DNA of 64,000 bases, from contig OZ220744.1 in assembly GCA_965116925.1 (NCBI GenBank), forward strand, positions 4,384,001 to 4,448,000. Reading direction: 5' to 3'. A program made the translations under genes and the position numbers. This DNA is from Candidatus Poribacteria bacterium. Its GTDB lineage: Bacteria > Poribacteria > WGA-4E > PCPOR2b. The notes under the pieces are model-generated. The model did no database searches, was not told the DNA's origin, and saw only the letters and a list, made by a program, of their open reading frames with translations. Shown here piece by piece: positions 47,666 to 51,275 of this stretch. The first letter of the stretch is position 1. The number at the start of each line of letters is the position of its first letter.

Positions 47666-49300
47666 TCAAAACATGGAAAAGTCGATTTCCTTTGCTGTGA
47701 TAAATTCCAATAAGGTTGGAACCCCTTCCTCTGTTTTCTGGATTCCGCGTTTGATGGCAGGTATAATCTGGTCAGGGGTTTCCACCCGCTCACCGTAGCC
47801 ACCGAATGCCTTTGCCATGTCAGCGTAGTTTCCGGATATATCTGTGCTGCGGTATTTCTCAGTGGAAAGCTGCATAATCGGCAATTCAATTGCCATGGAG
47901 AAGTTGTTGAACAGGACTGACAGGATGGGGATACCCGCTCTGACAGCGGTCTCGAAATCCATGCCGGTGAAACCGATGGCAGCATCCCCCCAGATGTTGA
48001 CGCACAGCTTGTTTGGCTCCGCCAACTTCGCGCCCATCATCAGTCCAAGTCCATATCCCAGTTGCGTGGTTTTGCCCCAGCCGATATAGGAGAGCGGCGT
48101 GGTCGATTCCCAGAAGGGTGAAAGTTGGTCGCGCGGACTTCCGGCGTCGTGGGTGATGATGGTGTTTGCCACATCCACAGTGGCCATCAGATCCCGAATT
48201 ACCCGGTAGGGGGAGAGGGGAACCTCGTCAGAGGTTAGTTTGGGATTCCACTGTGATAGCCATTCCTGCCTGACCGTTTGAATCTCCTGTGTCACACTTT
48301 CACGGCGGCCTCGTGGGGTGCCGTTTAGACGCCCGCGAATTTCATCGACTAACGCCTCCAGTGTCAGTCGAGCGTCCCCAATCAAAGCATGTTCCACGGC
48401 TACATCTTTGTTGAGATCCGCCGCATCCAACGTGGCATGAATAATTGTTTTGCCTTTTGGTATGGTTGGTGCGTAGTTGGTGATGCTGAAGCTGCACCCA
48501 ATCCCGAAAATGACATCTGCATTTTGCAGGAAGTGGTGCACAGGTTTCGGCAGGGATCGACCACCGGAGCCGAGGGACAGGGGATGGTTTTCAGGGAAAG
48601 CACTCTTGCCGCCGAGACTGGTGGTCGTGGGTGCCTCCAAGAGCTCCGCGAGTTCTCTTAAAGCGTCCCACCCTTTGGCGTAGTGGACACCTTGACCTGC
48701 GTATAGCACGGGTCGTTCCGCCTCCAGCAAGACGCTGGCAATCTTTGGAATCTCATTCGGGTCTGGTGCGGTGCCCGAAACCGGGGCGGGTTGGTAGTTC
48801 AAGGGTTCAGACAGTTCCTCCGGTAATACATCGTTGGGAAATTCCACCAACGCCGGACGCGGTCTGCCGTTCTTTACCTGAGTAAAGGCGCGTCTCAGGG
48901 CATCGGGTGCTGCCTGCGGTAGGATGACCTGCTCGCAGGACTTGGTAACATTCTGGAAGTTGAGGAAGGAATTGAAGTTGGGAGGAACATTGGTCAAGGA
49001 ACGCGAATAGCCCATTGGCAATACCACGATTGGCACTGAGTCGCCATAAGCCTGCGCGACGCCACCGAAGGCGTTTTCCGAGCCGGGACCGCTCTGCATA
49101 CAAAACACCCCGATCCGTTCGCCGGACGATACACGACTAAACGCATCTGCCATGTGAAGCCCGATACGTTCTTGACGGACGATGATTGGGCGGATTCCTA
49201 CGGCGGCAGCGGCATCGATGATTGGATTGACCGGATAGGCAAATAGGTATTCCACACCTTCTGCCTTCAAAATGTGAGCAACAGCATCAGCAACTTTCAT
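47666..49300 (-). CDS. Thiamine diphosphate-dependent enzyme (acetolactate synthase-like superfamily)
   Basis: MKVADAVAHILKAEGV, RQER, SGPG and GDAA...NN ThDP motif. The likely start is the ATG at 49300; the ORF-track extension lies inside an IS derivative. Confidence 0.9.
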   Translation of the reverse strand: MKVADAVAHILKAEGVEYLFAYPVNPIIDAAAAVGIRPIIVRQERIGLHMADAFSRVSSGERIGVFCMQSGPGSENAFGGVAQAYGDSVPIVVLPMGYSRSLTNVPPNFNSFLNFQNVTKSCEQVILPQAAPDALRRAFTQVKNGRPRPALVEFPNDVLPEELSEPLNYQPAPVSGTAPDPNEIPKIASVLLEAERPVLYAGQGVHYAKGWDALRELAELLEAPTTTSLGGKSAFPENHPLSLGSGGRSLPKPVHHFLQNADVIFGIGCSFSITNYAPTIPKGKTIIHATLDAADLNKDVAVEHALIGDARLTLEALVDEIRGRLNGTPRGRRESVTQEIQTVRQEWLSQWNPKLTSDEVPLSPYRVIRDLMATVDVANTIITHDAGSPRDQLSPFWESTTPLSYIGWGKTTQLGYGLGLMMGAKLAEPNKLCVNIWGDAAIGFTGMDFETAVRAGIPILSVLFNNFSMAIELPIMQLSTEKYRSTDISGNYADMAKAFGGYGERVETPDQIIPAIKRGIQKTEEGVPTLLEFITAKEIDFSMF

Positions 49301-49692
49301 CAAATCTTCGCAGTGGAGACCCCGTTCTTTAGAGCGGGGAGGAAACTGCGCTCCTTTTTTGTTGTTTTTGGAATCTACCTTACACTTTTTAGGTAGATTT
49401 GTGAGAGAATAATGCTCGTAACTCGATGACTTAGGAGAAACGCTCGTTTTTCGCTGCCCTCTCCCTTCGATGGGAAAGGTAAAATTGCGTAGGCAAAGCC
49501 TACCAAGCAGTATGTCTGAGGTTTCACCCGGAAGTCGAAACAATTTCGTCACCGACGGATTGCAACGGCTTCTAAACGGTTGCTGCGACCGTGCGGTGGC
49601 GGGTGTGTAAAGTTACGAGCCAAGACCGCGTATCCCAATAAGACCCGTTGGACGGACAAACAAGCCCCCTCCTTCAGGGCGGGGTAGCTGAC
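49301..49692 (+). mobile_element. Transposase-less IS200/IS605-family derivative (392 bp)
   Basis: Left hairpin CCCCGTTC-TTTA-GAGCGGGG, right end AAGCCCCCTCC-TTCA-GGGCGGGGTAGCTGAC, no target duplication. Removing it restores AAGGAG-ACTTT-ATG on the minus strand. Confidence 0.8.
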
Positions 49693-49856
49693 AAAGTCTC
49701 CTTATTTTCAAAATGGGTTTATTTTAGAGAATTATACAATTCTAGTTTGAATACTAACCTTTGGTGCTAGTTTAGTGAGAAAGTTTTTTTCACATTGTTC
49801 AAGTCACTTTGGATCCCAATTTATCGGGGAGTCGGTTGGTTGATTCATTCTTTCGG

Positions 49857-49931
49857 ATACACATGTCGCCCCGCTGGGGCTTTAGGGTATTTGTTTATCC
49901 GTATACTATAAACATGTCGCCCCGCTGGGGC
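49857..49931 (+). repeat. Tandem doublet of short GC hairpins with CTATA-type flank
   Basis: ACATGTCGCCCCGCTGGGGCT twice at a 51-bp period. Confidence 0.8.
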
Positions 49932-49936
49932 TAAAT

Positions 49937-49972
49937 AAACCTAATGAATCGACAGTTTTCACGTTTCACGTT
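49937..49972 (-). repeat. Composite heptamer/octamer repeat (reverse orientation)
   Basis: Reverse complement AACGTGAAACGTGAAAACTGTCGATTCATTAGG. Confidence 0.6.
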
Positions 49973-50003
49973 ATCAACAGCTGCAAACTAGCACCATTGA
50001 TCA

Positions 50004-51275
50004 TTAAGTCCCCTTGATTTTTCCGCTCGCGTTGGGCAAGGGAGACTGTGGATGCATCGCTCGCGCCCTCGCCCGGAAGTCTAGCCCTTTTTGACCCAAT
50101 GCTTGCAATTCCTCTGGGCTGCCGTCAAACCATTCCTTTAGGCGGCGGCGGGCGATGTGGACGTGCAACACCTCGTCTGCCCAATCGAAGTCTTGAAGGG
50201 TTGTCATCAGGGGATGACGAGCGGCATCGCGGCAGAACTCGAACTCTTCGCGCTTGCCGGGTGGATATTTCATGAGACCGGCTTCGACGCCGAAGAGCAT
50301 GGCGTATAACTCCAGAGGATCCATCTTGAAGAGATAGGCAGACTCCCAATCGCGGATCGGCATCGCAGAACGCTCATCGAAAATATCTTCTGCCGCTGCC
50401 TCACCGAAGACGGAATGGCGCATCTCATCCCAGAGGTGACGGGAAATATCGGCGTAAAATTCCCACGGATGCCCTTTCATTTCGTACAGCACAAATCCCA
50501 ACGCTTCGGCAATCGTGGTTTCTCCGAGGCGGGTCGCAATCATCTGCATCAATCGCTCTTCTACCCGCTCATTGTCAACATGGATAATATCCCAAACACG
50601 CGGAAAGGTATCATCACGGGTGAGTTGTTTCGGAATCAGATATGGGGTAGTCGCTCGAACGGATTTCAGCGCATTAAGATTCACTTCGCCTGTGCCATCA
50701 ATGCCTCCGGCAGCTGCAAGCAGGTTATGAAGTGTCTCGCTCCAAGTCTCCGCTTCTGCTTCTTTTTTCGACGTATCAACGACATCGTGGTAGGCGGTTT
50801 CTAGCAGACCCAAGCCTTCCTCTACTTCGGCGATGACGGTTTTCAGGATACGCACAGTGGGATAGTCAGCCAAACCGTTGGTTTCGCCGACATACCTTTG
50901 GTATGCCTCCAGAAGCGCGGGTTTGAACACTTTTGCCAGTGCTGCCAGCAGTTCGACACTGTTTGCCGTATACATCGCTTCATCGAACACGATTTGCAAG
51001 GACGCATCGGGTGCTTGATACGCTTTTTTCTTAGAGACGCGCAGTTCAGGCAGTCGGGCTTTGAACTGAGACGCGTGCTGCGAGTTTTCATACTGAAGTC
51101 TTGCTAACAACACCTTGACATCTCGCTCCGGTGTGCTGATGATGTGGGCCGCTTGTAGAAACATCAATCGTTCTGCCGCGTAGGCGAATCGATGGATTCG
51201 GGCGGCGCATTGATCGACGCTGAGTCCACCCTGTGTTGCATTGTGCAAGCCAGCGTATTGATAAGTTTGATTCAT
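50004..51275 (-). CDS. Ferritin-like (DUF455-like) putative diiron protein, two helical-bundle domains
   Basis: C-terminal half E...WDEMRH...E...WADEVLHV (two ExxH); N-terminal half degenerate (ENSQH). Confidence 0.7.
   Translation of the reverse strand: MNQTYQYAGLHNATQGGLSVDQCAARIHRFAYAAERLMFLQAAHIISTPERDVKVLLARLQYENSQHASQFKARLPELRVSKKKAYQAPDASLQIVFDEAMYTANSVELLAALAKVFKPALLEAYQRYVGETNGLADYPTVRILKTVIAEVEEGLGLLETAYHDVVDTSKKEAEAETWSETLHNLLAAAGGIDGTGEVNLNALKSVRATTPYLIPKQLTRDDTFPRVWDIIHVDNERVEERLMQMIATRLGETTIAEALGFVLYEMKGHPWEFYADISRHLWDEMRHSVFGEAAAEDIFDERSAMPIRDWESAYLFKMDPLELYAMLFGVEAGLMKYPPGKREEFEFCRDAARHPLMTTLQDFDWADEVLHVHIARRRLKEWFDGSPEELQALGQKGLDFRARARAMHPQSPLPNASGKIKGT

Follow-up and report, generated by a model that had tools for sequence, protein, structure and literature searches.

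A gene-less IS200/IS605 derivative between the Shine-Dalgarno sequence and start codon of a Poribacteria gene: a probable stand-alone omegaRNA in a family often docked on start codons

We analysed a stretch of 64,000 nucleotides (the window) from a Candidatus Poribacteria bacterium (contig OZ220744.1, positions 4,384,001 to 4,448,000 of the forward strand), in which a 392-bp element lies directly upstream of a gene for a thiamine-diphosphate (ThDP) enzyme. Coordinates are window positions, and genome coordinates are named as such; F1-F9 denote nine elements of 1.3-1.45 kb in the same genome. The host protein carries the Pfam domains TPP_enzyme_N, M and C, with the N domain beginning at residue 1, and scores 877 bits against NCBIfam NF004807 (cut-off 607). 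The element is a palindrome-associated transposable element (PATE) of the TnpB-type IS200/IS605 group, inserted 3' of TTCAT between the Shine-Dalgarno sequence (SD) and the ATG of the ThDP gene, and its plus strand appears to encode a structured, transcribed RNA that is likely to be an omegaRNA for the TnpB of sister elements. The following features were assigned.

47666-49300, minus strand: intact gene for a ThDP enzyme of 544 aa, family PRK06154 (Pfam and NCBIfam NF004807)
49296-49300, plus strand: flank motif (transposon-associated motif, TAM) TTCAT, on the minus strand ATGAA, that is, the host start codon and the first two bases of codon 2
49301-49692, plus strand: gene-less IS200/IS605 derivative of 392 bp (PATE, or miniature inverted-repeat transposable element, MITE) from left end to right end (twin copy, empty orthologues, no Pfam-matching open reading frame (ORF) inside)
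49309-49350, plus strand: left-end subterminal hairpin, with outer stem 49309-49314/49345-49350 (CGCAGT/ACTGCG) and inner stem 49320-49324/49335-49339 (CCCCG/CGGGG)
49351-49360, plus strand: candidate substitute ribosome-binding site (RBS), CTCC plus a T-run, which on the gene strand reads as an A-run and GGAG immediately 5' to the hairpin (family motif and fold; putative function)
49372-49399, plus strand: hairpin AATCTACCT / AGGTAGATT, upstream of the -10-like box of the RNA (sequence and family alignment)
49402-49410, plus strand: extended -10-like box TGAGAGAAT, conserved, family consensus TGnTA(A/G)AAT, with a predicted transcript start at about 49418
49418-49692, plus strand: structured non-coding RNA, a putative omegaRNA-like scaffold with an approximate 5' end (alifold, covariation, RNA contigs)
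49570-49692, plus strand: homology to the tnpB 3' end and right end of full-length elements (local alignments to F1, F7 and F9, same order of modules and hairpins)
49664-49685, plus strand: right-end subterminal hairpin, helix 9 of the predicted fold, followed by AGCTGAC, the last bases of the element
49693-49709, plus strand: right flank AAAGTCTCCTTATTTTC, the would-be RNA guide, which contains at 49698-49703 the complement of the native host SD, AAGGAG

On the plus strand the locus reads AACTTTCAT, then the element from CAAATCTTCGCAGTGG to GGGGTAGCTGAC, then the right flank AAAGTCTCCTTATTTTC, the complement of which, GAAAATAAGGAGACTTT, is the SD with its spacer. The boundaries at 49301 and 49692 follow from constant end sequences in 13 elements of this genome (four short copies and F1-F9), which all start with CAA(A/C)TCTTxGCAGTGG right after TTCAT, TTCAC or CTCAT and share the right end GGGGTA(A/G)(C/T)TGAC. 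The element is flanked by TTCAT on the left and AAAGTC on the right, with no target duplication, and its ends, CAAATC... and ...GCTGAC, are not inverted repeats. Palindromes lie near the terminus on both sides, and the subterminal hairpins that an initial annotation of this DNA had noted were located at 49309-49350 and 49664-49685. The outer stem of the left hairpin covaries between subfamilies (CGCAGT/ACTGCG versus CGGGAT/ATCCCG). The same annotation had read TTCAT as the reverse complement of an ATGAA gene start, which matches the start of the 544-codon minus-strand ORF.

Excising 49301-49692 in silico yielded AATAAGGAGACTTT-ATGAAA. An empty site of this kind was present in all 19 orthologous loci of relatives that could be anchored, 16 from the same genus and three from the same family; each reads SD, 4-5 nt and ATG without a duplication, and on the plus strand TTCAT is followed immediately by A(A/G)(A/G)(A/T)TCTCCTTATT, with AAAGTCTCCTT identical in three of the 19. 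The earlier claims of a precise insertion without duplication 3' of TTCAT, between RBS and ATG, and of a deletion that restores an SD-spaced ATGAAA were thereby borne out. Orthologues carrying the 392 bp as a normal leader had been put forward as a counter-argument; none of the 19 carries the element, and related copies do exist elsewhere. The fact that all 19 orthologues are empty indicates that the 392 bp were gained between SD and ATG after the split from the nearest sampled relative.

Relatives of the element were sought by a DNA search of the genome to which the window belongs, a single contig of 6.47 Mb. Four short copies were found: the window element itself, a twin at genome 4161432-4161823 that is 99% identical, and two longer copies (426-428 bp) with 75% identity. 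Paired end-matches delimited F1-F9, each of which has one plus-strand ORF of 349-450 codons; the frames of F1-F5 are open over 450 codons. The F1 ORF carries the Pfam domains OrfB_IS605, Cas12f1-like_TNB and HTH_OrfB_IS605, and the D, E and D motifs and a CxxC...CxxC zinc finger can be read in its translation. Judged from their sequences, F1-F9 are tnpB-only IS200/IS605 elements, and the full-length tnpB elements that the initial annotation had proposed to look for, sharing the ends and the flank motif, therefore exist in this genome. The left ~64 nt of the 392-bp element are 91-97% identical to F1-F6, and its right 66-87 nt are 75-85% identical to F1-F9 by blastn; with permissive local alignment the right-hand homology grows to ~120-150 nt and reaches the tnpB segment for a conserved C-terminal stretch. 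Neither blastn nor nhmmer found a counterpart of the element interior (~65-255) in the long elements or elsewhere in the genome, and nhmmer searches of this genome with the interior matched only the four short copies. The sole ORF of at least 80 codons inside the element is an 84-codon in-frame run-on of the host gene, so that the ORF listing agrees with the earlier statements that the interior has no TnpA/TnpB-like ORF and that the host frame is open 84 codons into it. The element had been described as a transposase-less IS200/IS605 derivative, and this description stands, since its ends are shared with tnpB-only elements and it has no TnpA- or TnpB-like ORF. By the same sequence features it is classed as a non-autonomous IS200/IS605 derivative, and as a PATE under the definition given in PMC3119063.

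Short copies are also abundant in other genomes, with 25 to at least 34 family copies per genome in two relatives. A full-length parent containing the interior was not recovered: the nine stretches analysed, of ten partially matching ones in relatives, were further short copies. Four versions of ~1.35 kb in two relatives (L163:544-1916, L165:544-1888, L180:526-1888 and L195:526-1888) are short copies with a nested insertion sequence (IS) of ~940 bp that has a 267-codon DDE-type frame and that we take to be IS5-like; it sits at TTAG in hairpin loops of the element, in either orientation. Two left-end remnants in the window's genome have no detectable right end (genome 350597-350660 and 6122938-6123021); each is positioned exactly at a start codon, that of an ORF of >1000 codons for the former and of 378 codons for the latter, and a 271-residue truncated tnpB adjoins the former. 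In F1-F5 (genome 4907757-4909171 and four sisters) the tnpB frame runs on until one base short of the right end, and since its stop TGA lies inside the terminal CTGAC, the entire omegaRNA region is overprinted by the open frame.

The strand and structure of the encoded RNA were assessed from the family alignment. RNAalifold on 56 family copies gave -161.8 kcal/mol for the plus strand versus -116.2 for the other strand, and the plus-strand consensus structure contains 845 G-U pairs versus 49 A-C pairs. The large excess of G-U over A-C indicates an RNA read from the left end to the right end. Covariation was evaluated in a diverse set of 21 of the 56 copies, over the region between position ~110 and the right end. 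Among 60 predicted pairs 22 show changes on both sides, and 97.5% of the cells pair. None of 500 column shuffles reached any of five structure measures, and slid structures gave 5-10 two-sided pairs, so that the interior stems listed in the initial annotation are real beyond chance. The predicted helices extend to 49685, near the right end, and size differences between subfamilies consist of entire added hairpins. Some copies (L058, L060, L091 and others; alignment columns ~395-417) carry a mini-hairpin of ~25 nt (..AATCCCGAyTTrTCGGG..) just 5' of the right-end hairpin, and a similar free sequence lies in the intergenic region of the window at 49813-49832.

RNA from the element was then sought in public sequencing runs, compared as contigs: two metatranscriptome runs from one study and two DNA-like runs, in which parts not covered by a contig are uninformative. 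Contigs matching the RNA that the initial annotation had predicted had high depth in the metatranscriptomes. A 361-nt contig covering 49305-49665 with four differences had a depth of 1176, and a 236-nt contig covering 49430-49665 with two differences had a depth of 1896. In the same metatranscriptomes the flanking ThDP gene had a depth of 5-6 and the left-end part of the element 17-73, which places the RNA interior at 200-400 times the flanking gene in the two contig sets. As the flanking ThDP gene is ~91% identical to that of the window, these transcripts come from a relative. In the DNA-like runs, the left end was the deepest part by far, and the comparison of interior with flanks in RNA and DNA runs indicates that the interior is strongly enriched at the RNA level. 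The stretch of high RNA depth begins near the predicted start at ~49418, and one 67-nt contig (depth 455) extends 9 nt past 49692, a weak hint of a guide.

Taken with the homology to tnpB 3' ends, the covarying plus-strand structure and the RNA abundance support the interpretation as a stand-alone omegaRNA, and binding and cleavage by TnpB are predicted from sequence. The interpretation draws further on the position and strand of the RNA and on the presence in this genome of intact tnpB genes that share the flank motif. It agrees with the earlier suggestion that an omegaRNA-like RNA is retained and would run into AAAGUCUCCUUAUUUUC. Transcription would start near 49418 at the conserved extended -10 box and would continue through the right end into the flank. 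Together with the TnpB of the full-length sisters, the RNA would direct a cut of the empty site (TTCAT plus AAAGTCTCCTTATTTTC), and recombination after this cut would restore the copy. Since there is no nuclease gene in cis, any TnpB must act in trans. A PATE that carries an omegaRNA is already known in print: for Geobacillus stearothermophilus, PMC10055086 states that PATEs "often encode omegaRNAs", which would be available to TnpB in trans.

We next examined where the short family inserts. Relatives were collected as 54 stretches found by similarity (52 with both ends) and 62 found by an exact 28-nt core (51 with both ends), all 62 exact-core matches being in Candidatus Poribacteria records. 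With the four copies of the window's genome added, and with double fetches and orthologous sites merged by flank similarity, these gave 107 copies at 64 distinct sites. The flank motif was TTCAT at 45 sites, CTCAT at 11, TTCAC at six, and ATCAT and GTCAT at one each, so that 62 of the 64 have YTCAY. At 43 sites a frame of 150 codons or more begins at the ATG or GTG that the flank motif supplies, and 41 of the 64 are docked on a start codon, as defined by an in-frame stop at most 45 codons upstream in the rebuilt empty site. Of the 43 sites with such a frame, 32 are preceded by an SD-like tetramer at a distance of 3-18 nt, and many of the N-termini resemble signal peptides. The same criteria applied to this genome, with a crude ORF mask in place of gene calls, gave a null of 2141 start-like sites among 45591 motif sites (4.7%), or 20.6% of the start-like and non-coding sites together. 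The observed 41 of 64 departs from both (binomial p = 1.7e-38 against 4.7% and 6e-14 against 20.6%). Full-length tnpB elements were docked at 5 of 26 distinct sites, consistent with the non-disruptive null, or at 7 of 26 if a 121-codon lipoprotein-like frame and a frame with a long open upstream are included; the difference between short and full-length elements is significant (Fisher p = 1.5e-4). Placement between SD and ATG is thus the rule of the short family and not an oddity of the window copy. The docked share was 11 of 22 in the youngest copies and 8 of 9 in the most diverged ones (trend not significant, p = 0.12). The excess is therefore already there among young copies, perhaps with survivorship on top of it. 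At the level of titles and abstracts, which give no proof of absence, we found no report of start-codon docking by IS200/IS605 elements and none on tnpB in Poribacteria.

Further details of the docked sites were examined. A T at position -6 was considered as part of the motif and discarded: it is present at just 7 of the 23 undocked sites, so the T excess in docked sites reflects ATGAAA gene starts. In one relative a 406-bp family copy (L168) is docked at the GTG start codon of the gene for a homologous ThDP enzyme (483-codon frame), with the N-terminus VKVLDAIAHIMKKEGVEYL versus MKVADAVAHILKAEGVEYL in the window gene; since its flanks differ from those of the window locus, it represents an independent insertion at a related gene. 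The back strand of the 392-bp element is open in frame with the host gene for 104 codons from stop to stop. This openness is limited to the element and its 99% twin, and the family median is 27 open codons. Passage of ribosomes through a conserved stop-free back strand was accordingly rejected, and the long opening is a matter of chance. Translational coupling was also rejected, the frame whose TGA overlaps the ATG having no start codon within 24 codons.

How a host gene might be translated with the element between its SD and ATG is suggested by the left end. On the gene strand every copy shows the same order, namely an A-run, GGAG/GAGG/GGAGG, the ~42-nt left-end hairpin, AAGATTTG and the ATG, and the purine tract, which could be scored at 61 of the 64 sites, matches GGAGG at four or five of five positions in 58 of them. 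Folding of two sequences predicts that the GGAG tract is left unpaired beside the hairpin and, with the hairpin closed, lies 8 nt from the ATG. Such an end (A-run plus GGAG, stable hairpin, 8 nt) would keep the host gene translated, and with the RBS rebuilt, gene starts would serve the family as safe harbours. We put forward, as a tentative possibility somewhat short of an even chance, that the lineage is adapted to start-codon docking in this way: TTCAT is the complement of ATGAA, the outward A-run and GGAGG, bridged by the hairpin to 8 nt, rebuild an RBS, gene starts serve as safe harbours that are not lost by sloppy deletion, and the omegaRNA guide corresponds to the host SD leader. Docking itself is real in the family data, and its mechanism is only proposed. 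Thin support for live docked genes comes from three orthologous docked pairs found between two species. In one, the downstream 367 codons differ by 43 synonymous versus 2 non-synonymous changes, and with flanks 93-96% alike this indicates a gene kept under strong constraint with the element between its SD and ATG.

Several observations weigh against these interpretations of the RNA and of the left end. The other two docked pairs show 12 synonymous/20 non-synonymous and 18/16 changes, that is, weak or no constraint. Docked copies were checked for a better outward SD than undocked ones, and the two groups carry GGAG motifs of the same quality; the motif is hence a property of the element end that was not selected after insertion. 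Read in the plus direction, these bases resemble a terminator, with a hairpin and a T-run, and that role could account for their presence. The intact host ORF is uninformative on expression, because the insertion is recent, as the 99% twin indicates. On the side of the RNA, the -10 box of the 392-bp copy is one base off the consensus, and a simple sigma-70 scan calls no promoter there. The RNA contigs come from a relative, and contigs reveal neither strand nor true ends nor read-through. The comparison with curated TnpB-associated RNA families that had been suggested earlier was negative: Rfam, including its TnpB- and IscB-associated models, gave no match for the element and three full-length or related loci (best E = 0.18), although Rfam may hold no model for this lineage. 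Finally, only the 3' ~120 nt of the RNA resemble full-length elements, and as the 5' ~150 nt have no counterpart in tnpB elements, TnpB binding is not assured.

The last of these observations bears on the alternative that the plus-strand RNA is a domesticated regulator, acting mainly as an antisense against host-gene leaders and not as a TnpB guide. The RNA would be fully complementary to the leader's antisense copy and, beyond the right end, to the native SD. It is very abundant, has its own conserved -10 box, is transcribed convergently with the host gene, and its conserved and structured 5' ~150 nt are foreign to tnpB elements. But no evidence points to targets, the transposon ends are fully kept, the copy numbers in the two relatives are those of a mobile, selfish element, and the RNA ends at the canonical omegaRNA position; we consider a mainly regulatory role improbable. 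The initial annotation had further proposed a reversible switch, in which the element splits SD from ATG and silences the ThDP gene until excision by TnpA in trans restores it. If the element were excised, the exact SD-ATG spacing of the relatives would be recreated, and excision of IS200/IS605 elements is scarless according to PMC10055086. Contigs with the junctions 49300/49693 (depth 18) and 49304/49697 (depth 56) do occur in one DNA run. These are shallower than the filled site (127), come from a mixed sample in which they are indistinguishable from co-occurring strains, and have junctions that also occur in relatives. Moreover, none of the five Y1-transposase-like loci of this genome has these ends within 1.5 kb flanks. 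The only IS605-type Y1 frame among them lacks the C-terminal part of its family (degenerate), and the remaining ones are presumably RAYT-like (REP-associated relatives). A tblastn search of this genome with the TnpA of a related tnpA-tnpB element, present in a relative, gave no match, and a TnpB with a working guide would oppose loss of the element. With no cognate tnpA found, the switch is not supported and appears very unlikely, and excision is possible in principle. The relative with the most short copies (G002) contains a complete tnpA-tnpB IS605-type element (L119, L123) with hairpins resembling those of the short family, left end CAAAATCTTCCG, flank motif TTTAT and right end ...GTATGTCAAC, which could be where TnpA comes from in G002.

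The remaining alternative concerns docking. If the window copy were a plain, recent and mildly harmful insertion at a chance TTCAT start, the expression of a dispensable gene would have been lowered or abolished, with the insertion as yet unpurged, and docking in the family would reflect selection against insertions in genes and other regulatory DNA. Recency is evident from the 99% identity to the twin and the absence from all 19 relatives. The full-length elements, docked at 5 of 26 sites, behave as the 20.6% non-disruptive null predicts, and a docked share that grows with copy age fits survivorship. However, the youngest class is already 50% docked, 41 of 64 is about threefold over the non-disruptive null, the short copies differ from the full-length elements at the significance given above, and one docked gene is under strong purifying selection in two species. 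We therefore regard a plain insertion as unlikely, though less so than a regulatory RNA or a switch.

The same intergenic region contains a second, unrelated repeat family of ~250 bp, at 49751-50008. It includes two copies of a GTCGCCCCGCTGGGGC hairpin (~49865-49885 and ~49915-49935) and has dozens of 72-89% matches in almost all genomes of the genus.

Taken alone, the window copy is an ordinary element of a well-documented kind, a PATE that keeps a probable omegaRNA. It would provide a natural example, from an uncultivated sponge-symbiont lineage, of a highly expressed guide-RNA gene with its own promoter, separate from its nuclease. If the left end rebuilds an RBS, IS200/IS605 elements could occupy thousands of sites without killing genes, which would help to explain the abundance of tnpB, and transposons hidden in 5' untranslated regions would matter for genome annotation and for the evolution of start-codon contexts.

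The proposed arrangement resembles hairpin-bridged ("split") ribosome-binding sites, as in phage T4 genes 38 and 25, where a distant SD is brought near the AUG by a hairpin. In the present case GGAG would be followed by a 42-nt hairpin and, after 8 nt, by the AUG; the likeness is pure analogy, since the window hairpin is a transposon end needed by the transposase. IStrons, chimeras of group I introns and IS200/IS605 elements (10.1101/2023.11.20.567912), are similar in that an IS200/IS605-type insertion could be phenotypically silent at the RNA level. The window element, in contrast, is antisense to its host gene; no Intron_gpI match was obtained on either strand at E up to 1, and copies differ in the base that would precede a 5' splice site on the gene strand, which led us to reject a group I intron or IStron. 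Homing elements of the ISDra2/IS608 type combine peel-and-paste transposition with RNA-guided cutting of the empty donor site, as described in PMC10055086. The present element shares with them a 5-nt motif 5' of the left end, a right-end omegaRNA-like RNA with its putative guide in the flank, and tnpB-only sister elements that carry the same motif. It differs in having no nuclease gene in cis, in that no cognate TnpA was found in this genome, and in that TTCAT is the complement of a start-codon context. The closest likeness is to the PATEs of Haloquadratum, defined in PMC3119063 by near-terminal palindromes, no terminal inverted repeats, no target duplication, a length too short for a transposase and IS605-type ends. 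The 392-bp element agrees with this definition in its palindromes and in lacking inverted repeats, a duplication and a transposase, and its ends are common with those of tnpB (IS1341-type) elements, of which it has retained the tnpB 3' part with the putative guide-RNA scaffold. Unlike those PATEs, the short family has a conserved extended -10 box of its own and ~150 nt of extra structured 5' RNA that the full-length elements of this genome lack, and about two thirds of its sites lie exactly between an SD and a start codon.

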